Assembly (NCBI GenBank): GCA_900757185.1
Contig: CAAEMX010000060.1
Location: 72,610 to 136,609 of the forward strand
Reading direction: 5' to 3'
DNA from: an uncultured Collinsella sp.
GTDB lineage: Bacteria; Actinomycetota; Coriobacteriia; Coriobacteriales; Coriobacteriaceae
DNA: 64,000 nucleotides
Shown piece by piece: positions 9,373-62,380 of the stretch. The notes under the pieces were generated by a model. The model was not told the DNA's origin. It did not search any database and was given only the letters and a program-made list of their open reading frames with translations. Position numbers and translations under genes: made by a program. Position 1 is the first letter of the stretch. Each line of letters starts with the position of its first letter.

Positions 9373-9382
9373 CCACAGAATG

Positions 9383-9444: not shown

Positions 9445-9452
9445 CATCATTT

Positions 9453-22702: not shown

Positions 22703-22923
22703 CCGGGGCCCTTCTCAGGCCCCGGGGACGGCATTTTCACAGTTGAAGGAACGGTGGAGATGTGTTTCGATGGGTCAGATTCGTGTCGTTCCGAAAAGAC
22801 CGTGAACCTTTTGTGGGACACGCGGCGCCGTGGTACCATAGCCGAGTTTGTTGTCTTGGTCGGAAACCAAGACGCCTTATGCGCTGATCGGTAACCAGCG
22901 CCTGACCAATAAGGAGTCCTACC

Positions 22924-42209: not shown

Positions 42210-42283
42210 TGGGATGTCGTCTAATGGCAGGACAGCGGATTCTGGTTCCGTCAATGGGGGTTCGACTCCCTCCATCCCAGCCA
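42210..42283 (+). tRNA. tRNA-Gln (anticodon CTG)
   Basis: Cloverleaf: acceptor TGGGATG/CATCCCA, anticodon loop TTCTGGT, T-loop GGGGGTTCGACTCCCTC, discriminator G plus CCA. Confidence 0.85.
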
Positions 42284-42300
42284 TTGCATTTGCTACATAT

Positions 42301-42377
42301 GGCCCGTTCGTCTAGCGGTTTAGGACGCCGCCCTCTCAAGGCGGAGATCACCAGTTCGAATCTGGTACGGGCTACCA
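42301..42377 (+). tRNA. tRNA-Glu (anticodon CTC)
   Basis: Acceptor GGCCCGT/ACGGGCT and a D-arm TCGTCTAGCGGTTTAGGAC typical of tRNA-Glu. The anticodon loop is CTCTCAA, the T-arm ACCAGTTCGAATCTGGT, and the 3' end is ACCA. Confidence 0.85.
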
Positions 42378-43852: not shown

Positions 43853-44060
43853 CCGTCCTTCATAAGTTGCGGTGGAATACGGACTGTTTTGCCTGTTTGA
43901 GGGGCTATTCAGTCCTTATTTCACCGCAACTGCGGGCGTCTCATCTTGCTTATACTGTTTTGACACATATGTCTCAAAGGTGGTGTCCGTTGTGGGCGCC
44001 GCCTTTTTTGTGGGTACATACATCCATGAGGTTCCAACCCGGGTTAGGGGAGTGATTGTT

Positions 44061-44940: not shown

Positions 44941-45080
44941 GTCTTAACCTGCCACATCTAACGGTGGAAATTGGGCCCACTTGTTACATATCGAGACAAA
45001 CCAAAACCGTCCGGCAGAAGATCTCAATCTGTAACATCTAGACATCGAAAGCGGGTCTAGATGTTACAGATCGAGACGTT
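44941..45080. repeat. REPIN/MITE-like palindromic repeat array 1 (2 units; first unit degenerate)
   Basis: The arm GTCTCGATCTGTAACA faces TGTTACAGATCGAGAC around the core ggaaattgggcc. Confidence 0.85.
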
Positions 45081-45104
45081 TGCCTGAGTAGGTGCCCCGC
45101 CCCA

Positions 45105-46361
45105 TTACATCCCTGTCAACAACACGACATCGAGAATCGTCACGATGGCACCGATCCCTACGAGCAGCGCGTTGAGTGGACGCGAATTGGCGTATTTGCC
45201 CATGACGCGGGGTGAACTGGTGAGCCGTATGAGCACAAAGACCGTAATCGGTAGCTGAAGCGACAGCAGTGCCTGACTCCAGATGAGACCTTCAAAAGGA
45301 TTTGGGACGACCAGGCACGCCGTCACTGCGCCGACGAAACAGGCCGCCACCCCGATCGAGGAATGTCGGTCGTGGATATCGTATTCCTCGTCGAACATGC
45401 CCGCAGTGATGGTCCCCGCCGCCATGCCCGCTGTCACGCTGCTCGATAGTCCCGCGAACAGCAGCGCTACCGCAAAGATGGTCGAGCTCGCCGGGCCCAG
45501 AATGGGGGAGAGCGTGGCCGCTGCGACGGCGAGGTCGTCTACGACCATGCCGTGCGCAAAGAAGGTCGTTGCGGCCAGGATGACCATGGCCGAGTTGATT
45601 GCCCAGCCCACGCCCATCGAAAAGAGCGTGTCGAAGAGCTCGTAGCGCAGACGCTCTTCGATAACCTGCTCGCCTTGGCCTTCGAAGTGCATGGATTGGA
45701 TGACCTCGGAGTGCAGAAAAAGGTTGTGTGGCATAACGACCGCACCCAGGACACTCACGATAATCGCGGCAGAGCCAGTGGGCATACTGGGCGTGATCCA
45801 GCTTGCGGCGGCTTGCGGCCAGTCGACCTTGACTAGTGCAAGCTCGGCCAAAAACGAGAGTCCTACCACGCCTACGAAGGCGATGATCCAGCGTTCGGCT
45901 CGCTTGTAGGAGTTCGTCATGAGCATCGCCATCGATACTGCCGCCACGATGACGCAGCCCGCACGCACGGGCAGCCCAAAGAGCATTTGAAGGGCAATCG
46001 CGCCGCCCAGGACTTCGGCCATGGCGGTGGCGATGGTCGCGAGATAGGCGCTGCCGAGCACCGCGCGTCCCACGATGCGGGGGAGAAAGCGGGTCGTGGC
46101 CTCGGCAAGGCAGGCGCCCGTGGCGATGCCCAAGTGCGCCGCGTTGTGCTGCAGCACGATGAGCATAATCGTGGACAGCGTGACGATCCACAGCAGCGCG
46201 TAGCCAAACTGCGAGCCCGCGGCCATATTGGAGGCCCAGTTGCCCGGGTCGATAAAGCCGACGGTCACGAGCAGCCCGGGGCCGATATGCCGCGCAATGT
46301 CTAGGCCTCCGTGACCGCCGGTGCGCCGGGAACCAAAGTGTTGTTTGAGATGGTTGAGCAT
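45105..46361 (-). CDS. mntH: NRAMP-family divalent metal cation (Mn2+/Fe2+) transporter
   Basis: The NRAMP motifs GPGLLVTVGFIDPGNWA and 11 TM segments. Confidence 0.85.
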   Translation of the reverse strand: MLNHLKQHFGSRRTGGHGGLDIARHIGPGLLVTVGFIDPGNWASNMAAGSQFGYALLWIVTLSTIMLIVLQHNAAHLGIATGACLAEATTRFLPRIVGRAVLGSAYLATIATAMAEVLGGAIALQMLFGLPVRAGCVIVAAVSMAMLMTNSYKRAERWIIAFVGVVGLSFLAELALVKVDWPQAAASWITPSMPTGSAAIIVSVLGAVVMPHNLFLHSEVIQSMHFEGQGEQVIEERLRYELFDTLFSMGVGWAINSAMVILAATTFFAHGMVVDDLAVAAATLSPILGPASSTIFAVALLFAGLSSSVTAGMAAGTITAGMFDEEYDIHDRHSSIGVAACFVGAVTACLVVPNPFEGLIWSQALLSLQLPITVFVLIRLTSSPRVMGKYANSRPLNALLVGIGAIVTILDVVLLTGM

Positions 46362-46436
46362 GGTGCGCTCCTGTGTATGGGCGGCGTGACGTCACATCTG
46401 GGCCGTGCGGCGCCACGCGTCGGTTTTGGGTTGGGG

Positions 46437-47210
46437 CTACTTGTGTGCTTTGCCCTGATTGGCCACGGCGTCGATCTTGGCGGCGATGGTCGCCGGGTCG
46501 CCGATGTAGCGCTTGTCGAGGACATTGAAATCGGTATCGAAGGTGTAGACGAGCGGCACGCCGGTGGGGATGTTGACCTTGAGGATCTCCTCGGGCGTGA
46601 GGTGTTCGAGCTTCATGACGAGTGAGCGCAGGGAGTTGCCGTGTGCGGCGATGAGTACGCGCTTGCCGGCGAGCATCTGGGGGCGAATCTCGTCTTCGAA
46701 ATAGGGCCAGGCGCGGGCGATCGTGTCCTTGAGGCATTCGGTATAGGGCAGCTGATCAGGCGCGACATCACGGTATTGCTCCTGGGTGTGGGGATCGCGC
46801 GCGTCGTTCGGCTCGAGTGCCGGCGGGCAGATATCGAAGGAGCGGCGCCAGATGAGCACCTGCTCGTCGCCGTGCTCCGCCGCGGCATCGGCCTTGTTGA
46901 GACCCTGCAACGCTCCGTAGTGGCGCTCGTTGAGCTTCCAGGATTTGATGACGGGCAGCCACTCGCGATCCATTTGGCCGAGCACGATGTTGAGGGTGTG
47001 GATTGCGCGCTTGAGGCGCGAAGTGTAGCAGACGTCAAAGTCGAAACCGGCTTCTTTGAGGGCTCGACCGCCTGCTGCGGCTTCTTCGCGGCCCGTGTCG
47101 GTGAGCTCAACATCGGTCCAGCCGGTGAACAGGTTGAGCTTGTTCCACTCGGACTCTCCGTGACGGATAAGGACGAGTTGCATCGTCTGCTGGTCTGCTT
47201 GGTGCGCCAT
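46437..47210 (-). CDS. gpmA: 2,3-bisphosphoglycerate-dependent phosphoglycerate mutase
   Basis: LVLIRHGESEWN is the phosphohistidine signature, and the dPGM fold is conserved throughout. Confidence 0.9.
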   Translation of the reverse strand: MAHQADQQTMQLVLIRHGESEWNKLNLFTGWTDVELTDTGREEAAAGGRALKEAGFDFDVCYTSRLKRAIHTLNIVLGQMDREWLPVIKSWKLNERHYGALQGLNKADAAAEHGDEQVLIWRRSFDICPPALEPNDARDPHTQEQYRDVAPDQLPYTECLKDTIARAWPYFEDEIRPQMLAGKRVLIAAHGNSLRSLVMKLEHLTPEEILKVNIPTGVPLVYTFDTDFNVLDKRYIGDPATIAAKIDAVANQGKAHK

Positions 47211-47348
47211 AGGGGCCTCCTTGATCTGGCACGGTGTGCGTGCCGTTTGCTTGACGCCGCAAAGGATACCCGTTTTAACCTTAAAAGTTAACCAAGACTA
47301 ACAAAATTGTTGTATTTGAATGGGATGGTGAAAGGGGGCTGCCGAAAT

Positions 47349-47570
47349 GTCTCGATCTGTAACAACTAGGGATGGAAATTGGGCCTAGGTGTTACAGATC
47401 GAGACAGGAAGAAATGGTCCTATGGAAAATCTCGATCTGTAACAGTTAGCTGCAAAAACCGGCCCTTCATGTTACAGATTGAGACATTTGGAACCGTCTC
47501 TCGAAAACATCTCAATCTGTAACAGTTAGTCGTCGAAATTGGGTCTTACTGTTACAGATTGAGATGTTTG
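47349..47570. repeat. REPIN/MITE-like palindromic repeat array 2 (3 units)
   Basis: Same arms as array 1, with cores ggaaattgggcc / aaaaccggccc / cgaaattgggtc. Confidence 0.85.
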
Positions 47571-47648
47571 AAGAGGTGAGTTTGCAGGCCGAACTTGGGG
47601 CCTATGTTGTCGCCCTTGAGGTCGGCGGTGTCCACTCGTAAGGTGTGC

Positions 47649-47680
47649 GTTACGCGATTGTTTCGAAACGGGCGGGAAAC
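47649..47680 (+). promoter_or_regulatory. Candidate GlnR-box-like tandem half-sites upstream of gltB
   Basis: GTTAC-n6-GTTTC immediately followed by GAAAC-n6-GAAAC. This resembles the actinobacterial gTnAc-n6-GaAAc box. Confidence 0.25.
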
Positions 47681-47749
47681 ACAGCGGGCCGGCGATGCTC
47701 CTAGTATGCCTAGTCAACTGACTGTCTAAATATCTAGGGGAGGATCGCG

Positions 47750-50700
47750 ATGCAGGCAGATTCCGCTCAGCAGCAGGGCCTTTATCGCCCCGAATTCGAC
47801 CACGATGCATGCGGCATCGGCGCGCTTGCCGATATCAACGGCGAGCGCCATCACCAGATTCTGGATGACGCGCTGTCCATTTTGGTTAACTTGGAGCACC
47901 GCGGTGGCACGGGCCTCGAGAAGAACACCGGCGACGGCGCTGGCATCCTGTTCCAGGTCCCGCATCACTTTTTTCGTAAAGAGGCTCAAAAGTGCGGCCA
48001 GATTCTGCCGGCAGAGGGCGACTATGGCGTGGCCATGCTGTTCTTTCCGCAGGACGATAAGGGCGTAGAGGATGCCCGTCGCGTGTTTGAGGAAGGCTGC
48101 GCCGAGGCCGGCGTGCCGCTGCTCTTTTGGCGCGAGGTGCCGGTCGATCCGCACAATCTGGGCGAGACGGCCCGCGCCTGTATGCCTACTATCCTGCAGG
48201 CATTCCTGGGCCGTCCGGACGACACGCCCGCCGGCGATGCCTTTGAGCGTCGCCTGTACGTGTGCCGCCGCACCATCGAGAAGAAGGCCGACGCTGAGTT
48301 CGCTCTGCGCGACAAGATCTTCTACGTGTGCTCCATGAGCTCGCGCACTATCGTGTACAAGGGCATGCTCGTCGCCACACAGATGCGCCGCTTCTTCATC
48401 GACCTCAACGACGCCGCCGTCAAAACGGCCGTGGCGCTCGTCCACTCGCGCTACTCCACCAACACCACGCCCAGCTGGGAGCGTGCGCACCCCAACCGCT
48501 TTATCATCCATAACGGCGAGATCAACACCCTCAAGGGCAACGTCAACTGGATTCGCGCCCGCGAACCCAACCTGTACAGCCCCGTGCTGCAGCACGATCT
48601 TGAGCGCGTGATGCCCATCATCAACCGCGAGGGTTCCGACTCCGCGATTCTGGACAACGTGCTCGAATTCTTGGTCATGAACGGTCGCCCGCTCACGCGT
48701 GCCGCGTCCATGCTGCTGCCCGAGCCGTGGGACCACAACGACAGCCTGAGTGAGGAGCGCCGCGCCTACGACGCTTACCAGTCCATGCTCATGGAGCCGT
48801 GGGATGGCCCGGCCGCCATCGCCTTTACCGACGGCCGTACCTTGGGTGCCGCCCTCGACCGTAACGGCCTGCGTCCCGCCCGCTACTATGTGACGCGCGA
48901 CGGTCGTTTTATGCTGGCAAGCGAGGTAGGCACCATCGAGGTGAGCCCCGAGAACATCCTGACGAGCGGCTGCCTGGGACCAGGCCAGATGCTCGAGGTC
49001 GACTTTGCCCGCGGTCGCGTCATCTACAACGATGAGCTGCGCGCCCGTTACGCTAAGGAAAAGCCCTACCGTGATTGGATTGCCGAGGAGACGCTGACCG
49101 TCGACGCGCTCGATAGGCCTGCCGCGGCAACGCCCGCCGAGGACGCCGAGGTGCCCGCCGCCGTGCGTATGGCCAAGCTCGGCTACCACTGGGATGACGT
49201 CGACGAGGTCGTGCGTCCCATGGCCCAGCAGGGCAAGGCACCGCTCGCCTCGATGGGCATCGATGCGCCGCTGGCCTGCCTGTCCAAGAAGACGCGCTCG
49301 TTCTTTGACTACTTCTATCAGCTGTTCGCCCAGGTCACGAACCCGCCGATCGACGCCCTGCGCGAGCATATGGTCACCTCGACCACGCTCTACCTGGGCA
49401 ATCACGGTAACCTGCTCGAGGACTCCCGTACGGCCTGCCAGCTGGTTCGCTTGGAGCGACCGCTGCTGAGCAAGGAGGAGTTTGACCGCATTTGCGCCAT
49501 CGACCGCGTGGGCTTTAAGACCCGCCGTTTCCGTGCCGTGTACCGCCGCAATGCCGGCGAGGGCGCGCTGCAGGCTGCGCTCAAGCAGCTTGCAGAGGAC
49601 GTTGAGGCTGCGGTGCGCGATGGCGTGAACATCGTGGTGCTGAGCGATCGCGCCGCTGCGGGCGAGGTCCCCGTGCCGTCGCTGCTCGCCGTGGGTTGCG
49701 TGCACAACCATCTGATCCGTGCCGGCGTGCGCACCTTTGCCGATATCGTGGTGGAGTGCGGCGACGCCGTGTCCCCGCACGACTTTGCGGCGCTGGTGGG
49801 CTACTCCGCGAGCGGCATCTATCCGTATAACGCGCATGCGTGCATCCGCGATCTGGCGGCACACGGCGACCTGGACGTGACGGCCGAGCAGGGCATCGCC
49901 AACTACAATAAGGCTGCGACCGCCGGCATTGTCTCCATCATGTCCAAGATGGGCATCTCCACGGTGCAGAGCTACCATTCGGCGCAGATCTTCGAGGCCG
50001 TGGGCTTTACGCCGGAGTTCGTCAACGCGTACTTCGCCGGCACGGTGAGCCGTGTGGGCGGTATGGGTGTCGAGGACGTTGAGCGCGAGCAAAACGAGCG
50101 CTACGACGCCGCACTCGCCATCCTTAAGAGCCCGGCTCCCGATCAGCTGCCCACACTGGGCCTGACAAAGTGGCGCCCGCTCGGCGGCGAGGATCACCTC
50201 ATCGATCCGCAGACTGTCTACTTGCTGCAGACCGCCTGCCGTGAGGACAGCTACGACACCTTTAAGGAGTACAGCGCCCGCCTGCACCGCACCGGCCGTG
50301 CCGTGCGCCTGCGCGACCTGCTGGACTTTGATGCCAGCGGCCGCACTCCGGTGGCACTCGACGAGGTGGAGCCTGCACTCAACATCGTCCGCCGCTTTAA
50401 CACCGGTGCCATGTCGTACGGCTCCATCAGCAAAGAGGCACACGAGTGCATGGCCATCGCCATGAACCGCCTACACGGCCGTTCCAACTCGGGCGAGGGC
50501 GGCGAGGACCCGCGTCGCGAGACCCCGCTGGCCAACGGCGACTCCAAGAACTCCGCGATCAAGCAGGTGGCAAGCGCGCGCTTTGGCGTGACGAGCCGCT
50601 ACCTTTGCAGCGCCTTCGAGATTCAGATTAAGATGGCCCAGGGCGCCAAGCCCGGCGAGGGTGGCCACCTGCCCGGCAAGAAGGTCTACCCCTGGATCGC

Positions 50701-52447
50701 CGAGGTCCGTCAGTCCACGCCCGGCATCGGCCTGATCTCGCCTCCGCCGCACCATGACATCTACTCCATCGAGGACCTGGCAGAGCTGATCTTTGACCTT
50801 AAGAACGCCAACCCCGGTGCGCGCGTGTCGGTCAAGCTGGTCAGCGAGGCCGGCGTCGGTACCATCGCCACCGGTGTTGCCAAGGGTGCCGCCGACAAGA
50901 TCTTGATCAGCGGCCACAATGGCGGCTCGGGTGCCGCGGCGCGCGATTCGATCTGGCACGCGGGTCTGCCGCTGGAGCTCGGTCTTGCCGAGGCCCAGCA
51001 GACGCTGCTGCAAAACGGCCTGCGCTCGCGCGTGGTGCTCGAGGCCGACGGCAAGCTCATGGACGGTACCGATGTCGCCGTCGCCTGCCTGCTGGGCGCC
51101 GAGGAGTTTGGCTTTGCGACCATGCCGCTCATCTCGATGGGCTGCCTCATGCAGCGCGACTGCCAGCAGGATACCTGCCCCGCCGGCATCGCCACGCAAA
51201 ACTGCCGCCTGCGTCGCGGCTTCCGCGGCAAGCCCGAGCACGTCGAGCGCTTTATGCTCTTTGTTGCCGAGCAACTGCGCGAGGTCATGGCGAGCCTGGG
51301 CTTCCGCACCGTCGACGAGATGGTCGGCCATCCCGAGTGCTTGCGCCAGATCGAGGTCCCGGGCAATCGCAAAGCTAACCTGCTGAATCTGTCGCCCGTA
51401 CTGGCAAGCGCGACCTGTGAGTTTGGTGCCCATATCCCGGGTGCCGACGGTCGTCACTTCCTGCCGCAGATGGCCGCGGACAGCGAGCTCAACAAGACGC
51501 TCGACTCCACGCTGTTCGTGCCCTATACGGCCGATGCCCGTGCCCACTTGCGTCCGATTCGCTTCCGCGCTGATATCGCCAACGTCAACCGTTGCGTGGG
51601 CACCATCCTGGGTAACGCGGTGACCAAGGCACATCCCGAGGGCCTGCCCGCCGGCTCCATCACCATCGATTGCGATGGATCGGCCGGTCAGAGCTTTGGC
51701 GCCTTCCTGCCGCGCGGCATTACGCTCAACGTGTGCGGCGACGCCAACGACTACTTTGGCAAGGGCCTTTCGGGCGGCGAGGTGTCGGTGCGCCCCAACC
51801 CGCATGCGACCTATAAGTTCGACGAAAACATCATCGTGGGCAACGTTGCGTTCTTTGGCGCCACGAGCGGCCGTGGCTTCATCAACGGCCTGGCCGGCCA
51901 GCGCTTTGGCGTACGCAACTCCGGTGCCACCGTGGTGGTCGAGGGTTGCGGCAACCACGGTTGCGAGTACATGACGGGTGGCCTGGCGCTCATCCTGGGC
52001 GAGGTCGGGCAGAACTTCGCTGCCGGCATGACGGGTGGCGTGGCTTATGTCTTTGACCAGTACGGCACGCTCGATGCCCGCGTGAACCACGAGAGCGTTG
52101 AGCTCAAGGCCCCGACTGCCGGCGAGCTGGCGCAGATTCGCGAGCTCATCCAGGAGCACGTGGACGCGACGCAGAGCCCGCGCGGCATCAAGCTGCTCTA
52201 CAGCTTTGAGACGATGAGCAAGCACTTTGTGAAGGTCATTCCGACCGAGTACGAGCGTGTGCTGGCGATTGTCGCTGCGAGCGAGGCTGCCGGCAAGACA
52301 CATGCGCAGGCAGAGGAACTGGCGTTTGACATTGTGACCGGTCGCGCGAGTGCCGCGGATGTCGCTCGCTTCGATGTCGCGGGCGGTGCTGCGGGCACTG
52401 CGTCCGTGGCCGCCAGCTCTGTTGCTTCGACCAAGAAGGAGGCGTAA
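47750..52447 (+). CDS. gltB: Glutamate synthase large subunit
   Basis: The N-terminal amidotransferase Cys (FDHDACGIGAL), the FMN/4Fe-4S central domain and the C-terminal GXGXG domain. The protein is 1565 aa. Confidence 0.93.
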   Translation: MQADSAQQQGLYRPEFDHDACGIGALADINGERHHQILDDALSILVNLEHRGGTGLEKNTGDGAGILFQVPHHFFRKEAQKCGQILPAEGDYGVAMLFFPQDDKGVEDARRVFEEGCAEAGVPLLFWREVPVDPHNLGETARACMPTILQAFLGRPDDTPAGDAFERRLYVCRRTIEKKADAEFALRDKIFYVCSMSSRTIVYKGMLVATQMRRFFIDLNDAAVKTAVALVHSRYSTNTTPSWERAHPNRFIIHNGEINTLKGNVNWIRAREPNLYSPVLQHDLERVMPIINREGSDSAILDNVLEFLVMNGRPLTRAASMLLPEPWDHNDSLSEERRAYDAYQSMLMEPWDGPAAIAFTDGRTLGAALDRNGLRPARYYVTRDGRFMLASEVGTIEVSPENILTSGCLGPGQMLEVDFARGRVIYNDELRARYAKEKPYRDWIAEETLTVDALDRPAAATPAEDAEVPAAVRMAKLGYHWDDVDEVVRPMAQQGKAPLASMGIDAPLACLSKKTRSFFDYFYQLFAQVTNPPIDALREHMVTSTTLYLGNHGNLLEDSRTACQLVRLERPLLSKEEFDRICAIDRVGFKTRRFRAVYRRNAGEGALQAALKQLAEDVEAAVRDGVNIVVLSDRAAAGEVPVPSLLAVGCVHNHLIRAGVRTFADIVVECGDAVSPHDFAALVGYSASGIYPYNAHACIRDLAAHGDLDVTAEQGIANYNKAATAGIVSIMSKMGISTVQSYHSAQIFEAVGFTPEFVNAYFAGTVSRVGGMGVEDVEREQNERYDAALAILKSPAPDQLPTLGLTKWRPLGGEDHLIDPQTVYLLQTACREDSYDTFKEYSARLHRTGRAVRLRDLLDFDASGRTPVALDEVEPALNIVRRFNTGAMSYGSISKEAHECMAIAMNRLHGRSNSGEGGEDPRRETPLANGDSKNSAIKQVASARFGVTSRYLCSAFEIQIKMAQGAKPGEGGHLPGKKVYPWIAEVRQSTPGIGLISPPPHHDIYSIEDLAELIFDLKNANPGARVSVKLVSEAGVGTIATGVAKGAADKILISGHNGGSGAAARDSIWHAGLPLELGLAEAQQTLLQNGLRSRVVLEADGKLMDGTDVAVACLLGAEEFGFATMPLISMGCLMQRDCQQDTCPAGIATQNCRLRRGFRGKPEHVERFMLFVAEQLREVMASLGFRTVDEMVGHPECLRQIEVPGNRKANLLNLSPVLASATCEFGAHIPGADGRHFLPQMAADSELNKTLDSTLFVPYTADARAHLRPIRFRADIANVNRCVGTILGNAVTKAHPEGLPAGSITIDCDGSAGQSFGAFLPRGITLNVCGDANDYFGKGLSGGEVSVRPNPHATYKFDENIIVGNVAFFGATSGRGFINGLAGQRFGVRNSGATVVVEGCGNHGCEYMTGGLALILGEVGQNFAAGMTGGVAYVFDQYGTLDARVNHESVELKAPTAGELAQIRELIQEHVDATQSPRGIKLLYSFETMSKHFVKVIPTEYERVLAIVAASEAAGKTHAQAEELAFDIVTGRASAADVARFDVAGGAAGTASVAASSVASTKKEA

Positions 52448-52452
52448 GTGCC

Positions 52453-53934: not shown

Positions 53935-53938
53935 AGTA

Positions 53939-54006
53939 GTCATTTAAGAACGTCCCCAATGACTAGTCATTTTTTGTCTAGTCGTTGGGGGCACTCTTTG
54001 CGAGCG
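53939..54006. repeat. GGGGACGTTC-loop hairpin (minus orientation) + gactagtc palindromes + GGGGCACTCTTTG motif downstream of gltD
   Basis: gtcatt-taaGAACGTCCCC-aatgac; gactagtc ... ctagtc; gttgggggcactctttgcgagcg. This is a near twin of the 11482-11542 element. Confidence 0.7.
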
Positions 54007-54287
54007 ATTTACTCGTTTGTCGACGTACGGGTGTTCATTTGGCGACTTCTTGGGCTGTGGTCACCTGTTGTTTCTGTGGTGGCTGCGGGCATCTGGCTCA
54101 AAAGGGCGGGTTGGCTGTCTATGTCTACCTGCGGTTTCTTTGCGGTACGCTCATTCGGTCAAGTGCCCCGTCAAGTGTTTGGTTAGCATCTGGTTTGCAG
54201 CCGAAGGCCTATTTTGCCCGCGCTGGTCGTGGCTGCCCACCCTCCTCGTAAGCTCAAATTGAGGTCCATCAGTTTGAGGAGGATGCC

Positions 54288-54995
54288 ATGACTGACCACG
54301 CTTTTGACCGAGCAGAGCTGGCTGAAGCCGTCGGCAACGATATTGCCGACATGGCTCACTTTTGGATGCTGCGGAAGTTTCAATTCCTGGAGCCGGCGCG
54401 CGAACAGTTCGAGGTCATTGTCGACCCGTGGCTCAGCTATTGCGAGGGGCCTTCTCAAAACGAAATCATGGCCTACAACATGGCGTTTACCGATTGGCTG
54501 CTCTTTGAGCGCCCCTATCGCCATGGCAAAACTCTGCTCGAGCTATATGTTGACGAGCCGCCGGCATCGCTTTCGCCTGCCTCGCTCAAGCGGCTCGAGC
54601 AGGTACGCGACACGCAGTATTTCTCGCGCTTTGGCATTTTGGACAAGAATCCTGCGTCCGGCATGGTCGTGCTGAAGGACACGCGCACCGATCATCGCTT
54701 TGATGTCTACGACCCGCATATCGTGCGGAAGGAGCATTGGAACGACGGCGCGATTGCGGTGCGCCTCGCCTGCGTCGACGATGTCTGGCTTACGGCGGGA
54801 CAGCTCTACCTGTATGACATCGCGCGCCTGAACGACACGGCGGTCGATGGGCCGGGTGCGGTGCATCCCGAGGATCTGCAGGACGGCTTTGACACCTCGT
54901 GCATCAGCTTCTTCTTGCGTCTGGTCCGCGACATCATGGGCGCCCAGGGGCGGTACGTAAAGTCCCTCAACATCTACGAACAGGAGTGGGAGTAG
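54288..54995 (+). CDS. Hypothetical protein
   Basis: A 235-aa ORF with a GAGGAGG RBS; no family recognised. Confidence 0.4.
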   Translation: MTDHAFDRAELAEAVGNDIADMAHFWMLRKFQFLEPAREQFEVIVDPWLSYCEGPSQNEIMAYNMAFTDWLLFERPYRHGKTLLELYVDEPPASLSPASLKRLEQVRDTQYFSRFGILDKNPASGMVVLKDTRTDHRFDVYDPHIVRKEHWNDGAIAVRLACVDDVWLTAGQLYLYDIARLNDTAVDGPGAVHPEDLQDGFDTSCISFFLRLVRDIMGAQGRYVKSLNIYEQEWE

Positions 54996-55035
54996 AGGAT
55001 GGGCGGTTGTCGCCTGCCTTGCCTTCTGCCCTTTT

Positions 55036-55258
55036 GTCTCGATCTGTAACGTTTGGGGACAAAAACCAGTCTATCTGTTACAGACCGAGACGAATGCTTG
55101 GGCGCCGCTGGTTTGTCTAAATCTGTAACGTTTAGGGGCCTGGAGAACGTCTTACTGTTACAGATCGAGACGTTTGGCACCTGGCTGGGGGGGGATGTCT
55201 CAATCTGTAACATCTACAGTCCAAAAATCGGTCTTCCTGTTACAGGTCGAAACGTTTG
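55036..55258. repeat. REPIN/MITE-like palindromic repeat array 3 (3 units), abutting the DUF559 gene start
   Basis: Arms gtctcgatctgtaac / tgttacagaccgagac, with cores acaaaaaccagtc / ccaaaaatcggtc. Confidence 0.85.
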
Positions 55259-56350
55259 TCGGCGGAGGCAACGGTGACGATGGTCCATTTGTCCGATGTG
55301 GTGGTGATGGAAGTGTCTAATACCGTTTTCAAGCACAAGCATACGACTCGCAACACGTTGGCGCGGAATAGGATGCTCGCGCGACTCACGGAGGCGACCG
55401 AGCAAGGTGCGCTGCTCGCAACGCATGACAATGCCGAGCTCATGTGGCTACGGCGTCATGTGGGAACCGATGATATTGCGGAGCCCGAGCCGTATTTGTT
55501 CTGCTTTCAACATGATTGGGGTGTACTGACGCCGGCGGAGCGAGCGCTGCGTACCATCAAAGGGCTTGCAGAGTTTCATCCCGATTGGGCGTTTTGGGGT
55601 TATGGCGCGGCACTTTTGTGGGGTCTGGAGGTGCCGAATGATCTGCTTGGGTCGCGTTTTCTTGTTAAGACGGGTTGTTCGGTGACGTTGAGCGGCGGGT
55701 GCAGGTTGTTGCGTCCGCAGATGGCGGGCGCACTCGAGCATGTTGATGGCGTGCGGGTGACGTCGTTTTGGCGCACGGTGGAGGATTGCCTACTGCGTGC
55801 GCCGTTCTCCTACGGGTTGGCGATTGCCGATTCTGCACTGCGGGCGAAAGGCGTATCACGTGGGGATTTGTGCGAGCGTCTCTGCGCCGATTGCGAGGGC
55901 AGGCGAGGTTATCGCAGGGCACAGGTGATTGCGTCGTATGCGGACGGGCTGTCTGAAAACGGCGGCGAGTCTCGGTTCCGAGCATTCTTTATTGCGTACG
56001 GCTTTCCGGTTCCGGAGCTGCAGGTGGAGTTTCGCGACCCGCTCGATCCGAGCCAGGTGTTTCGCGTCGACTATTTTTGGCGGCTCGAGGACGGGACGTG
56101 TGTCATCGGCGAGCTTGACGGAAAGGGGAAGTACACCTTGCAGAGCGGCGAGGGTCGGGAGTCGGTTGACCCATTCGTGGCAGAGCGTCAGCGGGAATCT
56201 CATCTGACAATGCTCGGGCATAAGGTGCTTCGGTTTACGTTTAACGAACTCAAAGGCCCGGGGAAGCTAGTCGAGAAAATGAGGCTGGCGGGTATTCCTC
56301 GGCAGGTTGAATTGGCTGAGGAGTGGAGACGCCAGTGGTATGGGCGCTGA
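55256..56350 (+). CDS. DUF559 (Vsr/PD-(D/E)xK-like endonuclease) domain protein with AbiEi-like N-terminal region
   Basis: The C-terminus FRVDYFWRLEDGTCVIGELDGKGKY...ERQRESHLTMLGHKVLRFTFNEL matches the DUF559 pattern. The start is uncertain (55256 or 55280). Confidence 0.55.
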   Translation: MSAEATVTMVHLSDVVVMEVSNTVFKHKHTTRNTLARNRMLARLTEATEQGALLATHDNAELMWLRRHVGTDDIAEPEPYLFCFQHDWGVLTPAERALRTIKGLAEFHPDWAFWGYGAALLWGLEVPNDLLGSRFLVKTGCSVTLSGGCRLLRPQMAGALEHVDGVRVTSFWRTVEDCLLRAPFSYGLAIADSALRAKGVSRGDLCERLCADCEGRRGYRRAQVIASYADGLSENGGESRFRAFFIAYGFPVPELQVEFRDPLDPSQVFRVDYFWRLEDGTCVIGELDGKGKYTLQSGEGRESVDPFVAERQRESHLTMLGHKVLRFTFNELKGPGKLVEKMRLAGIPRQVELAEEWRRQWYGR

Positions 56351-56357
56351 GAGGTTT

Positions 56358-56496
56358 TGTCTCGATCTGTAACGTTTTGAGGCTGTTTGAGCTCGTAATT
56401 GTTACAGATCGAGACAAGCCGGTGAAACGTCGACCGAATGTCTCGATCTGTAACATCAGGGGGCCCAATAACCCTGTACCTGTTATAGATCGAGAG
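56358..56496. repeat. REPIN/MITE-like palindromic repeat array 4 (2 units), starting 8 bp after the DUF559 stop
   Basis: Arms gtctcgatctgtaac / tgttacagatcgagac; the second unit is more degenerate. Confidence 0.85.
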
Positions 56497-56645
56497 ATTT
56501 CCCTAGTGCCGCTGGGATGGGACTGCAACGTATTCCGTCCCCCACATCCTCTCTTCCTTCCGTTAACCGATGCGTCTGCAGCAATCCGGCGGGACTAGGT
56601 GATAATGGACAAATGTTCAAGTTAATCGTGAGGGAGGAGCTCGAT

Positions 56646-58016
56646 ATGGCATCTGCCGATCGTTCCACGTTGTTTATCAATGCGACTATTCTGGATGGTT
56701 CGGAGCATATGGAGCCGCAACCCGATATGGCCGTGACTGTTGAGCGCGGCGTCATCACCTGGATGGGGCCGAGTGCTGTGGCGCAGGCGCCTGCAGGTGC
56801 CGAGGTTATCGACCTGGGTGGTGCGTATCTCATGCCCGGTCTCATCAATATGCACGTGCACCTGTGCGGCTCGGGCAAGCCTGTCTCGGCCGGCGATGCG
56901 GGAGCGCTGATGAAGAAACTCGATAATCCCGTGGGCCGTGCCATCGTCCGCCTCATCCTCAAGGGCAGTGCCCAGCAGCAGCTGGCAAGCGGCGTGACCA
57001 CAGTGCGCGGCGCGGGCGACCCGCTGTTTGCCGACATTGCCGTGCGCGACGCTATCGACGCCGGCAAGTATCAGGGTCCGCGCCTGGTAGCGCCGGGAAC
57101 GGGCGTCACGGTGCCGGGCGGCCATGGCGCGGGCTTGTTCGCCCAGGTGGCCAACAGCCCCGTCGAGGCAGCCGAGCAGGTGCGAGACCTGTATGCGCGC
57201 GGCGCCGACGTCATTAAGCTGTTCGTAACGGGCGGTGTGTTCGATGCGACCGAGGTGGGCGAGCCGGGCGTGCTGCGTATGCCGGTGGAGGTTGCCGCGG
57301 CGGCGTGCAAGGCGGCGCACGAGGTGGGTCTGCCGGTTATGGCTCATGTCGAGAGCACCGAGGGCGTGAAGGCCGCGCTTGAGGCCGGGGTCGACACGAT
57401 CGAGCACGGTGCCCCGATGACGCCCGAGATCCTGGAGCTGTATCGCGGCGCCGCGGGCACACAGCTCGAGGGACGCGCGCCGAGCGTGACCTGCACGATC
57501 AGCCCGGCGCTGCCGTTTGTATTGCTCGACCCGGAAAAGACCCATTCGACCGATACACAAAAGAAGAACGGCGACATCGTGTGCTCGGGCATCATCGAGA
57601 GCGCCCGTGCCGCACTGGAAGCTGGCATTAAGGTGGGCCTGGGCACGGACTCAAGCTGCCCGTTCGTGACGCAGTACGACATGTGGCGTGAGGTTGCCTA
57701 TTTTGCCAAGTATGTCGGTGTGAGCAACGCCTTCGCGCTGCATACGGCTACGCAAGTCAACGCCGAGCTGCTGGGGCTGGGCGGCGAGACCGGTACGATC
57801 GAGTGCGGCAAGGCCGCCGATATCCTGGTGACGCGCAAGAATCCGCTCGATGACCTGTGCGCTCTGCGTGAGCCGACGCATGTGATGTGTCGCGGTGATC
57901 TGGTACGCAAGCTCATGGTGAAGCGTATTCCCGAGGTGGACGCCGAGCTCGACGCGATTATGGCCATGCCTGCCGAAGCGCTGGCTGAGGAGCTGGCCCG
58001 CGACGGTGTGGCGTAG
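56646..58016 (+). CDS. Amidohydrolase-family protein (metal-dependent hydrolase)
   Basis: The metal-binding motif LMPGLINMHVHL and the ...HVES...HGA ligands of the amidohydrolase_1 superfamily. A GAGGGAGGAG RBS precedes the start. Confidence 0.75.
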   Translation: MASADRSTLFINATILDGSEHMEPQPDMAVTVERGVITWMGPSAVAQAPAGAEVIDLGGAYLMPGLINMHVHLCGSGKPVSAGDAGALMKKLDNPVGRAIVRLILKGSAQQQLASGVTTVRGAGDPLFADIAVRDAIDAGKYQGPRLVAPGTGVTVPGGHGAGLFAQVANSPVEAAEQVRDLYARGADVIKLFVTGGVFDATEVGEPGVLRMPVEVAAAACKAAHEVGLPVMAHVESTEGVKAALEAGVDTIEHGAPMTPEILELYRGAAGTQLEGRAPSVTCTISPALPFVLLDPEKTHSTDTQKKNGDIVCSGIIESARAALEAGIKVGLGTDSSCPFVTQYDMWREVAYFAKYVGVSNAFALHTATQVNAELLGLGGETGTIECGKAADILVTRKNPLDDLCALREPTHVMCRGDLVRKLMVKRIPEVDAELDAIMAMPAEALAEELARDGVA

Positions 58017-58149
58017 ATGTGACAAAGGGGCAGCTCCGTTGCCGCATGCAAAAAGCCGAGGTCTCAACACGAGGCCTCGGCTTTTTTATCGAACAAATAC
58101 TTAAGATTTGGGACAAACAAACCTGATTAATTTGTCCCGCGTGCGGGTG

Positions 58150-58629
58150 CTAGGAGCGGGTTTCCATCTTGGCGTGGCACTTGGGGCAGGTGACGCGGAT
58201 CTTGCCCTTGCCCTTGGGGACGGACAGCATCTGACCGCAGTTAGGGCACTTAAGGTAGGCCGTGGTCTTGCGGCCCTTCCACATCTTCTTGGCCGTTCGC
58301 TTGGCGCGCTCAAAGTCTTCCTTGCCGGTGCCGGCCGCGCGCGAGGCGTTGGCAGCCGCGGCGCCGCCACCCAAGCTGGCGACGAACTTACCTAGGCCGG
58401 GGACGTTTGCGGTCGCCGTGACAAAGGCATCGTTCTCCTTGCGGCGCGCGTCGATGTTTTTGGACAGACCGCGCAGCACGCCGAGCGCGATCACGGCGAT
58501 GGCGATCCAGCTGAGCCACTGGATACGGGCCATCGACCCGATCATCGCGATGATAATGCCTGCGAAGCCCAACACGACGGTGAGCTCATCGGCGCCGTTG
58601 CGACCCTTCATAAAGTCATTCATGCACAT
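58150..58629 (-). CDS. Membrane protein with C-terminal zinc-ribbon (CPNCG...CPKCH)
   Basis: Two TM helices, a Gly/Ala-rich linker and a C-terminal double CxxC. Confidence 0.5.
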   Translation of the reverse strand: MCMNDFMKGRNGADELTVVLGFAGIIIAMIGSMARIQWLSWIAIAVIALGVLRGLSKNIDARRKENDAFVTATANVPGLGKFVASLGGGAAAANASRAAGTGKEDFERAKRTAKKMWKGRKTTAYLKCPNCGQMLSVPKGKGKIRVTCPKCHAKMETRS

Positions 58630-58702
58630 TGCCTTTCATTCGATATGCTGCACGCCTTTATACCCGATTTAGAGTAAGGGGGACAAGCTCATCTGCACCA
58701 AT

Positions 58703-58735
58703 GTGGTGCAAACGTACCTGTCCCCATTGCACCAA
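58703..58735. repeat. ACCTGTCCCC-loop hairpin (family copy D) between the zinc-ribbon gene and csoR
   Basis: gtggtgcaa-acgtACCTGTCCCCa-ttgcaccaa. An additional perfect palindrome tgcacca-atg-tggtgca lies at 58695-58710. Confidence 0.65.
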
Positions 58736-59008
58736 TTACTTGGCGAGTTTGTCGACGACGCGTTCGATCTCGGCGAGCTTGGCGGCTTTGAGCTCCTCGT
58801 CGCCCGATTCGATGGCCGAGGCGACGCAGCCCTCAATGTGGGCCTTGAGCACGTCGGCGTTAATGCGCGCGAGGAGCGCCTGCGTTGCCATGAGCTGCGT
58901 GGAAATATCGACGCAGTAGCGGTCCTCCTCGACCATCCGCAGGATGCCGTCGATCTGACCGCGTGCCGTCTTGAGCATGCGGGTCACCGATTTATGGTCT
59001 GCCATCAT
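58736..59008 (-). CDS. csoR: CsoR/RcnR-family metal-sensing transcriptional repressor
   Basis: GQIDGILRMVEEDRYCVDISTQLMATQ matches the DUF156 fold with the C-H-C ligand pattern. Confidence 0.8.
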   Translation of the reverse strand: MMADHKSVTRMLKTARGQIDGILRMVEEDRYCVDISTQLMATQALLARINADVLKAHIEGCVASAIESGDEELKAAKLAEIERVVDKLAK

Positions 59009-59056
59009 GGCGGGTTCTCGTTTCTGGTCGATGGGGTCGAATGTCTCTGGTAGCTG

Positions 59057-59278
59057 CTACGCGGCGGTTACGGACAGGGCGTGGAACTTCTCGCCGGCGC
59101 CCTCGACGGCGGCAGCAAGCTGCTCGGCGGTCACGGTGTCGGCGCACTCCACCTGTACGGTCTGAGTCTCGTGATCGGCATCGGCGTCGGTCACGCCGGC
59201 AACGTTGAGCAGTGCCGTCTCGACAGTAGCGTCGCAGTGGCCGCACATAAGGCCCGAAGTCTTAATTGTGTAACGCAT
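59057..59278 (-). CDS. copZ: Copper chaperone CopZ (HMA domain)
   Basis: MRYTIKTSGLMCGHCDATVETAL is the GMxCxxC metal-binding motif. A GAGAGGA RBS precedes the start. Confidence 0.8.
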   Translation of the reverse strand: MRYTIKTSGLMCGHCDATVETALLNVAGVTDADADHETQTVQVECADTVTAEQLAAAVEGAGEKFHALSVTAA

Positions 59279-59425
59279 GGGTATTCCTCTCTGTTGTGTC
59301 GGCTTTCCCAGGCACCCGACCTTGACCTTCAAGCCGTCGCTCGCGTACCAAAGTACGCGTCGCTCCTCTTTCAGGTCAATCTCGGGCACCTGGAAAACCC
59401 GTTCTAAATGGACTTAATGGTGAGC

Positions 59426-61768
59426 CTATTTTGCCACTTTAGGCTTAAAGGATTTCAGGCGCAGCGCGTTGGAAACAACACACACGCTCGACAGGCTCAT
59501 GGCCGCGGCGCCAAACATCGGCGAGAGCTGCCAGCCGGTGAGGGGGAAGAACACGCCTGCGGCGAGCGGAATGCCGATGCCGTTATAGAACAGCGCCCAG
59601 AACAGGTCCTGCTTGATGTTGCGGATCGTGGCGCGCGAAAGCTCGATGGCGCGCGCAACATCCATGAGGTCGCTGCGCATGAGCACCACATCTGCCCCTT
59701 CTTTGGCGATGTCGGCGCCGGTGCCGATCGCAAGGCCCACGTCGGCGCGCGCCAGGGCGGGGGAGTCGTTGATGCCGTCGCCCACCATGGCGACCTTGCC
59801 GCCCGCATCCTGCAACTCGCGCACGTGGCGTTCCTTGTCGGCGGGGAGGACGTCGGCGATGACCTGTTCGCTGCTCAGCCCCACGCGGCGGGCGATGGCC
59901 TCGGCCGTCACGCGGTTGTCGCCGGTGAGCATGCGCACGTCGACGCCGAGCTTGCGCAGCGCGGCGATGGCCCCGGCGCTCGTCTCTTTGACCTCGTCAG
60001 CCACGGCGATGGTGCCGATAAGCTCGCCGTTCTTGGCAAAGAACAGCGGTGTTTTGCCCTCGGCGGCAAATTGCTCGGCAAGACCCGCGGGCACGGTAAC
60101 GCCCAACTCGTCCATCAGGCGTACGTTGCCGGCTGCAATGGCGTTTTGTCCCTCGCGCGCCGTAACGCCTCGTCCAGGCACGGCGGCAAAGTCCTCGACC
60201 ATGCGCGCGACGATTCCGCGCGACTCGCACTCGGCCATAATCGCCTCGGCCAGCGGGTGCTCGCTCGAGCGCTCCAACGCGGCGGCCAGCTTGAGCAGCG
60301 CCTTTTCGCTCATGGCGGGCGAGCCGTCAACGCGCGTGGCCACCACAATGTCGGTCACGGCCGGCTTGCCGCGGGTGACCGTGCCCGTCTTATCGAGCAC
60401 CACGGTGCCCACGCTGCGCAGATTCTCCAGCGCCTCGGCGCTCTTAAACAGAATGCCCATCTCGGCGCCCTTGCCGGTGCCCACCATAATGGCGACGGGC
60501 GTGGCCAGACCCAGTGCGCACGGACAGCTGATCACCAGCACGGCCACGGCGGAGGTGAGCGCCTCGTTGATGCTGCCGGTCAGTGCCATCCACGCCGCAA
60601 AGGTCACGGCCGAAATCACGAACACCACGGGCACAAACACGCCGGCGACCTTGTCGGCCAGGCGGGCGATAGGCGCCTTGGTGGCATTGGCATCCTCGAC
60701 GAGCTGGATGATCTTGGCAAGCGACGTGTCGGCGCCCACGCGTGTGGCACGGAAGGTAAACGATCCGGTGCGGTTGACCGTGGCGGCGTTGACGGTGTCG
60801 CCGGCGGCCTTTTCCACGGGGATGGACTCGCCGGTGAGCGCGCTCTCGTCCACGGCCGACGCGCCCTCGAGCACCACGCCATCGACGGGGATGGACTCGC
60901 CGGGGCGCACGCGCAGCACCTGACCGGGTAGGATGGCGTCGACGTCCACAGTGGCCTCGCTGCCGTCCTCTGCCACGACGGTCGCGGTCTTGGGCGCCAG
61001 GTCGATCAGCGCCTCGATGGCGCCGCCGGTTTTGGACTTGCTGCGCGTCTCGAGGTATTTGCCCACGGTGACCAGCGACAGGATCGTGCCCGCACTCTCA
61101 AAATACAGATTGTCCATGCCCGTCATCATGGCCTCGTGGACCTGACCCGCGGCTAATTGGTCGGCCATGATAAACATGGCGTAGAGCGACCAGGCGATGG
61201 AGGCGGTGGCGCCGACGGCGATGAGGGCGTCCATGGTGGGCGCGCCGTGCGCGAGCGATTTAAACCCGTTGATAAAGTACGCGTCGTTGACGTAGACGAT
61301 GGGGATGAGCAGGACGAGCTCGGTGAGCGCGAGCGTCATGCTGTGGATGTGGTCGGTGAAGACGCCGGGCAGTGGCCAGCTGAGCATGTGTCCCATGCCT
61401 ATGTAGAACAGTGGGATGAGGAATACGATCGAGACGATGAGGCGGGTGCGCATGGCGGAGGCGGTGGCCTCCAGCTTTTTGGTCGGCGACTCCATATGGG
61501 CGGCGCCGGATCTGGCTTGCGCGTTGCCGCTTGAGTTGGTGGCATCGGTGCCCGTGCTGACGGGCGAGGCCGAATAGCCCGCGCGGTCGACGGCGGTGCA
61601 GATATCGTCGGGGGAGACCTGCGCGGGGTCATAGTCGACCATCATGGAACCGGCGAGCAGATTGACCGCGACGCTTTGGACGCCGTCGAGTTTGCTCACG
61701 GCGCGATTCACATGCGCCTGGCAGGCGGCGCATGTCATGCCGCCCACGTCGAACTTATCTTGAGTCAT
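59426..61768 (-). CDS. copA: Copper-translocating P1B-type ATPase
   Basis: The N-terminal HMA motif GMTCAACQ, the CPC transmembrane motif, the DKTGT phosphorylation site and a [10 protein letters not shown] hinge. An AAAGGAGAA RBS precedes ATG 61768. Confidence 0.9.
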
Positions 61769-61919
61769 GGCTTCTCCTTTCTGTGACGTAGTGTCGGAAA
61801 TGTTAACCATCCGATACTATACACCCATACCCCCTGGGGGTGTCTAGTAGTAGTTGGAATGTATGATTTTTCATTACAGATGAGGGTGGCTGCTCAATCG
61901 GTGGCCGTCTCTGCCAAAC

Positions 61920-62380
61920 ATCTCGATCTGTAACATCTGGACCGGTTTTTCAACCATAGCTGTTACAGATTTAGACAAACATTTCAGCCGAAAACTAACG
62001 TCTCGATCTGTAACAACTAGACCCCGTTTTACCGAGTATTTGTTACAGATCGAGACAAACAGTTGGCAGGAAACTTAATGTCTCGATCTGTAACATCTAG
62101 CAGCAAATATGACCTCTAACTGTTACAGATCGAGATTTTGTTTTGCGAGGTTTGAGTTTGTCTCAATCTGTAACAGTTAGACCGGTTTTTGGATTCCAGA
62201 TGTTACAGATCGAGACGAACCTTCAGCAATAAACTTAATGTCTCAATCTGTAACATCTGGAGCCGATTTTGCCGAGTTACTGTTACAAATCAAGACAAAC
62301 CGTCCGACGATGACTCAATATCTCGATCTGTAACATCTAGCCCCAGTTTTGCCGAGTAGATGTTACAGATCGAGACAAAC
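61920..62380. repeat. REPIN/MITE-like palindromic repeat array 5 (6 units, period about 80 bp)
   Basis: Six F arms (atctcgatctgtaaca) alternate with six R arms (tgttacagatcgagac). The cores are accggtttttc / ccccgttttaccgag / agccgattttgccgag, and the linkers have the form aaac...aaacttaatg. Confidence 0.9.

Follow-up and report, generated by a model that had tools for sequence, protein, structure and literature searches.

What holds a short palindromic repeat together in tandem arrays between genes, and which protein might read it, are the questions raised by a stretch of 64,000 nucleotides from an uncultured Collinsella species (contig CAAEMX010000060.1, positions 72,610 to 136,609; the whole stretch is referred to below as the window). 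An earlier note on this DNA had described five such arrays spread over 17 kb of it. The arrays are members of a Collinsella-specific intergenic repeat family without earlier description, laid out like the bacterial interspersed mosaic elements (BIMEs), and their arms are conserved in a manner that points to selection on the DNA sequence itself. A gene lying between two of the arrays, which the note had listed as 'DUF559' and passed over as a bystander, appears to encode the best candidate for an arm-recognising protein, here called ORF364; the arrays cluster around this gene. The reading we favour, at a probability of about 0.4, is that the arms are duplex half-sites which would be bound by a dimer of ORF364, and that this protein would drive the dynamics of the arrays.

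The unit of the family is a 57-bp palindrome composed of a 16-nt arm (RTCTCRATCTGTAACA), a 25-nt loop and the reverse-complement arm, and neighbouring units are joined by linkers of 23-24 nt. A hairpin-level scan, in which two arms had to lie 40-42 nt apart with a total of at most 9 mismatches, recovered 16 units in the window, in five arrays of 2, 3, 3, 2 and 6 units (Table 1), with none outside them (positions 1-44900 included) and none in 20 shuffles, which confirms the five arrays of two to six units with a period of about 80 bp that had been reported here. With up to 2 mismatches the arm GTCTCGATCTGTAACA occurs 30 times, always within 44982-62376, against a shuffle expectation of 0.05; allowing a third mismatch brings the number of arms in the window to 31, and their strand alternates strictly. 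Arm starts are 41 nt apart on the loop side and 39-41 nt (mostly 39) on the linker side, hence the period of 80. It is this alternation that supports the earlier judgement that the arrays are not of the CRISPR kind, and the best CRISPR direct-repeat model reaches 16.7 bits against a gathering threshold of 39. The arms had been called exact, but in the first unit of array 1 the left arm is degenerate; similarly, every unit had been expected to fold, and of six units tested as DNA hairpins five do so strongly (z = -6.7 to -11.8), whereas the degenerate unit at 55197-55253 folds poorly (z = -2.4). A weak palindrome reaches beyond the arm, as GWWT-arm-NY-TAG, over about 25 nt on each side, the outer flanks GWWT and AWWC being reverse complements that carry the palindrome on. 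The arm begins with RTCTC and, in the unit matrix, is preceded by T in 63% of cases and by C in 17%. No inverted repeat lies within the 16-25-nt arm itself, palindromy arising only at the level of the 57-bp doublet.

The family is widespread in the genus. When one genome per species was scanned for exact copies of the arm, at least 120 loci were recovered, and the 80 with titles come nearly all from Collinsella, that is, from the aerofaciens group and many further species. Together with the window, the listed loci contain 834 arms and 391 hairpins. Arm pairs are spaced by 41 nt on the loop side in 387 of 391 cases, and by 39 or 40 nt on the linker side in 246 of 260. In a position matrix of 383 units from the listed loci, 12 of the 16 arm positions are 96-100% conserved. 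The core and the linker, both put forward as semi-conserved, are not: the loop is weakly conserved, as TAG..AAA..CTA with AAA at its centre and a remainder that is near random, and the linker carries near-zero information apart from its A/T-rich edges. The linkers of array 5 are alike because of a recent 240-bp (3-unit) duplication, and array 5 alone was detected by Tandem Repeats Finder, at a period of 80 under a super-period of 240 bp. Of 144 complete arrays, about 120 open with a '+' arm and close with a '-' arm, and thus the hairpin is the unit; arrays in the listed loci hold one to eight hairpins, most commonly two or three.

None of 154 arrays (listed loci and window) lies within a complete called gene, the single flagged intragenic case (L100) being an open reading frame (ORF) cut off at a contig end, so that the copies, for which this check had been proposed, are extragenic throughout the sample, and further copies lie elsewhere: the 154 arrays fall into 25 flank-similarity clusters, or about 30 chromosomal sites, over more than 100 Collinsella genomes. 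These sites, with a mode of two to three hairpins, lead to an estimate of about 100-200 arms per genome that is drawn from the listed loci and not from a complete genome; abundant REP families are those that exceed 100 copies per genome. One locus with type-A arrays, as we call this family, is labelled otherwise (L030, CAVCBD010000014.1, a metagenome-assembled genome of Acutalibacteraceae, Firmicutes); it is syntenic with Collinsella loci and 91% identical to L035, and is most likely a mis-binned Collinsella contig, judging by its sequence. The arrays match no Rfam family at the gathering threshold, a permissive threshold yielding generic miRNA-hairpin-like matches far below cut-off, and the literature searched contained no publication matching the arm sequence, repetitive extragenic palindromic (REP) sequences, MITEs (miniature transposable elements with inverted repeats) or REP doublets (REPINs) of Collinsella, or DUF559/AbiEi proteins tied to repeats, in agreement with the earlier impression that the family is absent from described collections. 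Whether TGTTACAG might resemble an operator motif, such as an IHF site or half of a parS site, was considered and the idea dropped.

Forty years of work on REP and BIME repeats has dealt almost entirely with Proteobacteria, and to our knowledge their sole known driver is the REP-associated tyrosine transposase (RAYT), families that lack it, such as the CGTC-tagged REPs, having no known partner. BIMEs are defined as regularly spaced repeats of alternating orientation that are modular, extragenic and length-polymorphic (PMC2817692). Like those of E. coli, Stenotrophomonas and Xanthomonas, the arrays described here alternate in orientation, have two alternating inter-repeat segments, are extragenic and species- or genus-specific, vary in length among strains, and flank an embedded gene on both sides with copies concentrated nearby, much as the E. 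coli rayt gene is flanked by BIME-2 and copies in Thauera concentrate near the gene (PMC2817692). In contrast, a REP is a 20-40-bp imperfect palindrome with a conserved GTAG or CGTC head (PMC3733652) and a RAYT, whereas the repeat here is a non-palindromic, headless 16-25-nt arm for which a weak search found no RAYT near the roughly 30 sites; the host is a member of the Gram-positive Coriobacteriia, the copy number is lower (about 30 sites), and the embedded gene encodes a winged helix-turn-helix (wHTH) and Vsr-like protein instead of an HUH transposase. The REP-doublet or MITE architecture first proposed therefore survives as a BIME-like layout, without the palindromic arm and head of a REP and without the target duplication of a MITE.

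These differences bear on the proposal that the arrays are REPINs mobilised in trans by a RAYT (an IS200/IS605-type Y1 transposase) encoded elsewhere. Such a mechanism would accommodate the alternating BIME-like layout, the extragenic position, the length polymorphism among strains and the vertical persistence, all of which are reminiscent of REPIN/RAYT systems (PMC2817692). It fits less well with an arm that has neither an internal imperfect palindrome nor a GTAG or CGTC head, and with perfect stems of 16-21 bp, conserved throughout, that resemble duplex binding sites and not the hairpin-plus-guide substrates of Y1 enzymes. A tblastn search with unverified seed sequences of IS200 TnpA and E. 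coli RayT gave nothing better than E 0.4 in the 909 kb surrounding about 30 sites, a weak negative because a RAYT could lie elsewhere in the genome. We consider it very unlikely that the arrays are moved in this way.

An indication of what constrains the arms comes from the way they diverge. Between orthologous arrays of different species the arms differ by 5.2%, the loops by 12.1%, the linkers by 12.2% and the flanks by 11.1%, which makes arm divergence 2.3-fold slower than that of loops and linkers. Paralogous sites still share identical arms where substitutions have saturated their loops. Compensatory changes are essentially missing from the 359 distinct units: whether position 1 or 6 of an arm carries G or A is independent of the other arm, producing many A·C and G·T mismatches, and in arrays between co-directional genes the sense strand shows no wobble bias (G·U 77 versus A·C 82). 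The slow divergence of the arms, taken with the lack of compensation and of a G·U bias, thus indicates a constraint on DNA sequence and not on RNA structure, and the arms and their spacing appear to be conserved as strand-symmetric DNA sequence, as a sequence-specific binding protein would impose.

This pattern has to be set against a structural role, in which RNA hairpins or DNA cruciforms would serve in termination, insulation or the protection of mRNA 3' ends, having spread by duplication and been selected for pairing. REPs of E. coli act in transcript termination, insulation and mRNA 3'-end protection, and the placement of the arrays, which start 8-40 bp past stop codons and leave 110-190 bp to downstream starts, would suit such a role, as would the great stability of the hairpins, with z down to -11.8. 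Structure alone, however, does not require arms to be identical over about 30 paralogous sites with saturated loops, nor would pairing be expected to tolerate mismatches at positions 1 and 6 in 359 distinct units without compensatory substitutions or to leave sense-strand G·U no more frequent than A·C. Moreover, the units have no U-tract, which together with a short GC-rich stem and a 3-8-nt loop defines an intrinsic terminator; the arrays contain no promoter consensus and are not enriched in terminator consensus (a single terminator-consensus site overlaps a unit, at 55066-55088, and the total is 14 versus 13.0 by chance); and some arrays, such as array 2, lie in divergent promoter regions. 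The orientation of the loop AAA relative to transcription is mixed inside arrays and uninformative. The terminator or insulator function suggested for the arrays accordingly finds no backing here, and a structural role in general fits the data less well and seems improbable.

The arrays are old in position and variable in length. Among about 1,690 comparisons of flank pairs, sampled with a bias towards loci that have arms, not one empty orthologous site was seen, which implies that the arrays are old and vertically inherited; nor did the comparisons of orthologous flanks give any sign of recent transposition. By contrast, in ten strains with an identical 235-aa neighbour protein all five arrays are present, with 1-12 arms each, so that the strain comparison once suggested as evidence of mobility yields no presence/absence polymorphism but a unit number that varies among close strains in the manner of a variable-number tandem repeat (VNTR). 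Orthologous arrays, array 2 among them, are mosaics of alternative loop and linker alleles, one linker being common to arrays 1 and 2, and hybrid loops mark recombination points inside units at variable positions (L014, L002).

The same observations bear on the possibility that the unit is a tiny MITE derived from a DDE insertion sequence, its arms serving as terminal inverted repeats and new copies inserting beside existing ones. The arms do form inverted repeats of 16-21 bp (16 nt, weakly extended to about 25 nt), and a reading centred on the linker starts with TG and ends with CA, as many DDE elements do. The order of '+' first and '-' last arms, however, makes the hairpin the unit and not the TG..CA reading; no target-site duplication is found, the flanks instead extending the palindrome; there are no empty sites and no full-length element with such ends in 0.9 Mb; and loops and linkers are far more diverged than arms, unlike those of fresh transposition copies. 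We hold an origin of this kind to be scarcely credible.

Gene content breaks exactly at arrays in four cases. In L101, ORF364 together with arrays 3 and 4 is replaced by one intact hairpin. Downstream of copA there are three alternatives according to strain, array-kinase, array-1111-aa gene and array-helicase, for which array 5 is the breakpoint (L043 380-7490; L131-L140 at about 17500-20700); the 1111-aa protein is alanine-rich and surface-like, the helicase is of the DEAD type, and L043 shows the full order of array, 1111-aa gene, array, kinase-FHA, array and helicase. An AAA-ATPase gene (368 aa, AAA_16/STAND-like) lies between two type-A arrays in L030 (4860-5966) and L035 (2623-3729) and is missing, with a single array remaining, from L040, L060 and L068. 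This ATPase has a C-terminal wHTH-like tail and the look of an accessory or defence-type protein; it has no PADLOC match and only sub-cutoff matches to NCBIfam. The notion that the arrays drive rearrangement hence has correlative support, and nothing beyond ordinary recombination among repeats of 80 bp is needed to explain it.

A more elaborate account of the breakpoints would have the arms as core sites of a site-specific recombinase and the blocks between arrays as exchangeable, integron-like cassettes, which is what the presence and absence of array-bounded blocks, with one array left at the junction, might be taken to show. The same pattern is produced by homologous recombination between 80-bp repeats, though, and junction units cross over at variable points of the loop (L014, L002) and not at a fixed site. 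No integrase or recombinase gene lies beside the arrays, and the units lack attC features, having perfect stems without extrahelical bases, no R''/R' cores, no RYYYAAC/GTTRRRY outer ends, and a tandem arrangement without ORFs. Such a system would be a most improbable explanation.

Several other differences in gene content near the arrays were noted. A loss of gpmA bounded by arrays was considered and rejected, as similarity at its junction is merely short and repeat arms are missing there; the gene is present in the window, L132, L133, L135 and L138-L140, and precisely missing from L066, L042, L116, L002, L131, L134, L136 and L137. Upstream of clpB, two small membrane-protein genes (228 aa, 233/236 aa) are reordered around two arrays between L008 (2400-5500) and L075 (2000-4500), a local rearrangement between two species. 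The idea that arrays are phage elements or attB sites was likewise discarded, since matches on viral contigs, checked against genome loci with the exception of L122, L129 and L130, were host flanks of prophages or host loci. The attachment point of one prophage, which has an integrase-like end, lies about 75 bp outside a type-A array (L121, L125 and L127 versus L033/L084; array at L033 4383-4600), the prophage joining after a conserved hairpin-containing segment that ends in ...GAATCTTAATACTGCCAC.

If a protein reads the arms, ORF364 is where one would look for it. It consists of an N-terminal AbiEi-like winged-helix region and a C-terminal Vsr/DUF559-like PD-(D/E)XK nuclease domain, with a Vsr-like fold and conserved acidic catalytic residues. 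Its family is large and uncharacterised (4,735 clusters at 50% identity, E <= 1e-3) and shares a motif D..ExD..K, in which D264 and E278 are invariant and D280 and K284 are found in at least 90% of sequences. All Collinsella loci have the gene as a single, syntenic chromosomal copy; it is borne by neither intron nor intein and has no homologue in the viral scan. Upstream of it lies a gene for a 235-aa protein, which in this lineage is conserved, at 40-50% identity, as a partner of ORF364-family proteins (window, L141 1019-1765, L143 1137-1880); in L143 the two homologues overlap by 4 bp and there are no palindromes, which suggests that the 235-aa gene and ORF364 formed a two-gene operon that is now split by array 3. 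Neither gene has a PADLOC or NCBIfam match.

The association of this gene with the repeats is close. In a metagenome scan by ORF364 alignment, which recovered close Collinsella orthologues and no new lineages, all 69 contigs with enough flank carried type-A hairpins on both sides of the orthologue, with at least one upstream. Within about 21 kb of ORF364 lie 54 of the 149 arrays (36%) from the listed loci. A Collinsella genome measures about 2.4 Mb, and a concentration of arrays around ORF364 of about 40-fold can be estimated, if that genome size holds and the sampling is unbiased. Importantly, arms and protein change together: L141, a more distant relative, has a 59%-identical orthologue in the same syntenic place and arrays of the same geometry at the same sites. 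In three of its intergenic regions the arms have shifted together to GTGC-RY-ATCT-(GT|CA)-GAC (11 of 16 positions identical to type A), and the N-terminal part of the protein is the most diverged, the neighbouring genes being 75-84% identical. A Collinsella paralogue with 35% identity to ORF364 (L022, L036, L041) is bracketed by a different palindrome, ATGAGCGTGGATAATCTCCC (type C), and homologues with 37-44% identity (L142, L144/145, L149, L153) are each flanked on both sides by a long palindrome of their own. The centres of these bracketing palindromes are mostly 26-28 nt, and altogether 7 of 13 homologue contexts, from 5 independent lineages, are positive; by comparison, the array-free 44.8 kb of the window holds about 5 long non-overlapping palindromes of any kind. 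The type-C palindrome also occurs as a solo intergenic copy in the window, with arms ATGAGAGTGGATAATCTTCCGTTTT and AAAGTGGGAGATTATCCACTCTCAT and an 18-nt loop (Table 1), and in L088 and L114, neither of which contains an ORF364-family match.

From these observations we infer that ORF364 may bind or cut the arms, acting as a dimer on duplex DNA. The AbiEi-like winged-helix part of each subunit would take one arm as double-stranded DNA, and the Vsr/I-Bth0305I-like nuclease domains would be placed over the centre of about 25 bp, whose fixed length would reflect the geometry of the dimer. There are precedents for both halves of such an arrangement: AbiEi-type winged helices bind inverted repeats (PMC7319586), and the homodimeric homing endonuclease I-Bth0305I covers about 60 bp of pseudo-palindromic DNA in footprints (PMC3239194). 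Binding or nicking by ORF364 could hold the sequence and spacing of the arms constant, the arms co-evolving with the protein, and nicking or cleavage would render the arrays fragile and recombinogenic. Repair by unequal or ectopic recombination might then generate the VNTR-like unit number and the exchange of loop and linker modules, and the same repair could spread arrays around ORF364 and bring about the loss and gain of gene blocks between them.

A number of points weigh against this reading. ORF364 misses the cut-off of Pfam DUF559 (PF04480; E 0.18, 12.1 bits versus 20.6), as do its relatives, 0 of 72 homologues reaching E 0.01, and it has Lys/Tyr where DUF559/Vsr motifs usually have His, so that its nuclease activity is not assured. 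The specificity of I-Bth0305I resides mainly in the central 14 bp, whereas here it is the outer arms that are conserved. The enrichment around ORF364 is that among the loci listed in the exact-arm scan and may in part reflect how they were sampled. Six of the 13 homologue contexts are negative or ambiguous (L143, L146, L147/148, L150, L154/155, L236), and the gene pair of L143, standing without palindromes, implies that palindromes are not obligatory for the protein; L101, conversely, keeps an intact hairpin at a site without ORF364. The link between ORF364 and the arms is one of association only, and the flanking palindromes could be merely the operator and terminator of an AbiEi-like autoregulator.

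There is one main rival. Some other host DNA-binding protein, be it a nucleoid-associated protein, gyrase, IHF or a chromosome-organising factor, may read the arms, ORF364 being an accessory gene caught between arrays. The constraint on sequence and not on structure would be explained; unrelated genes (the AAA_16 ATPase, the 1111-aa protein, membrane proteins) also lie between arrays; the hairpin of L101 persists without ORF364; and in E. coli, gyrase, IHF and Pol I are all bound by BIMEs (PMC2817692). What a host protein leaves unexplained are the five lineages of ORF364 homologues with palindromes of their own, the roughly 40-fold concentration of arrays around ORF364 and the joint change of arms and ORF364 N-terminus in L141, and on balance we think it unlikely, though a serious contender.

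Recognition of the arms by ORF364 would also set the pair apart from the systems it most resembles. With REPIN-RAYT systems and with REPtrons/TIRtrons it shares a hairpin doublet as the unit, vertical inheritance and long persistence, and a single-copy, bracketed gene for a candidate enzyme; and as in genomes with multiple RAYT/REPIN pairs, two paralogous proteins per genome have repeat families of their own (types A and C). It differs in that the enzyme would be of the PD-(D/E)XK/Vsr-like and not the Y1 HUH type, in that no new insertions are seen, and in that the repeats look like duplex half-sites of fixed spacing and not like single-strand substrates, so that the arrays may best be read as a REPtron-like repeat-protein pair with a non-HUH enzyme. 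I-Bth0305I, an EDxHD/Vsr-like homing endonuclease, has a NUMOD where ORF364 has its AbiEi-like N-terminus, and ORF364, being chromosomal, single-copy and syntenic, lacks the intron, intein or mobility that characterises a homing endonuclease gene. AbiEi antitoxins of type IV toxin-antitoxin systems differ in turn, since ORF364 has no DUF1814 toxin partner and has a C-terminal nuclease fold, and since the repeats lie on both sides of ORF364 and at about 30 other sites. Finally, the mycobacterial interspersed repetitive units (MIRUs), minisatellites of 40-100 bp, are also intergenic tandem units within or between operons with a strain-variable copy number, but they are direct repeats with no long palindromic arms and no associated protein.

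The bracketing of distant homologues raises a more general, and more tentative, proposition: in the widespread family that joins an AbiEi-wHTH to a Vsr-like nuclease (about 4,700 clusters at 50% identity), each member might read a palindrome of some 55-65 bp that is specific to its lineage and flanks its gene on both sides, the Collinsella version being one that has multiplied into BIME-like arrays at about 30 sites.

The features of the window are collected in Table 1. A further type-A array (a sixth or seventh) lies about 1.9 kb beyond its right end. Two long palindromes with 28-29-nt arms and 6-9-nt loops are unrelated to types A and C, and the only Rfam matches of the window are a ribosomal leader, which at 35.1 bits is barely over threshold, and two adjacent tRNA genes, which are consistent with an origin in the Coriobacteriia.

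Table 1. Coordinates of the arrays, of the genes between them and of other features in the window.
Feature	Position	Strand	Units or content	Setting and remarks	Arms across close strains
Array 1	44941..45077		two units: 44941-44997, 45021-45077	flanked by rubredoxin/flavin reductase (+) and the mntH 3' end (-); left arm of first unit degenerate, 5 mismatches	1 to 6
gpmA	46437..47210	-		segment 46376-47237 present or missing by strain	
Array 2	47349..47565		units 47349-47405, 47429-47485, 47509-47565	divergent region gpmA (-) / gltB (+)	
235-aa gene	54288..54995	+	235 aa	without family match	
Array 3	55036..55253		units 55036-55091, 55115-55171, 55197-55253	between 235-aa gene and ORF364; ends 27 bp upstream of ORF364 start	4-10
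ORF364	55280..56350	+	356 aa from 55280	TTG at 55256 gives 364 aa	
Array 4	56359..56496		units 56359-56415, 56440-56496	upstream of amidohydrolase gene; begins 8 bp past ORF364 stop	
Array 5	61920..62376		six units, a duplicated 3-unit block	flanked by the start of copA and the kinase gene's 3' end	2-12
Type-C palindrome	9380..9447		solo copy	intergenic	
Long palindrome	11627..11688				
Long palindrome	43865..43931			overlaps flavin reductase gene start	
L31-Coriobacteria leader	22881..22916		ribosomal leader	Rfam match	
tRNA genes	42210..42374		two adjacent genes	Rfam match	

The arrays matter to the biology of Collinsella whichever protein reads them. Genes are gained and lost at them, metagenome assemblies of the genus are probably broken up by them, and as VNTR-like markers they have potential for strain typing. 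If the nuclease link holds, they would represent a new class of repeat-protein partnership, a functional analogue of the RAYT-REP/BIME systems built on a PD-(D/E)XK and not an HUH enzyme, in which recombination provoked by the nuclease would shape the gene content of a major human gut genus; and a BIME-like family in a Gram-positive gut Actinobacterium, paired with another enzyme fold, would mean that symbioses between repeats and proteins arose more than once. One protein and one 57-bp DNA make up a candidate pair in which this can be tested.

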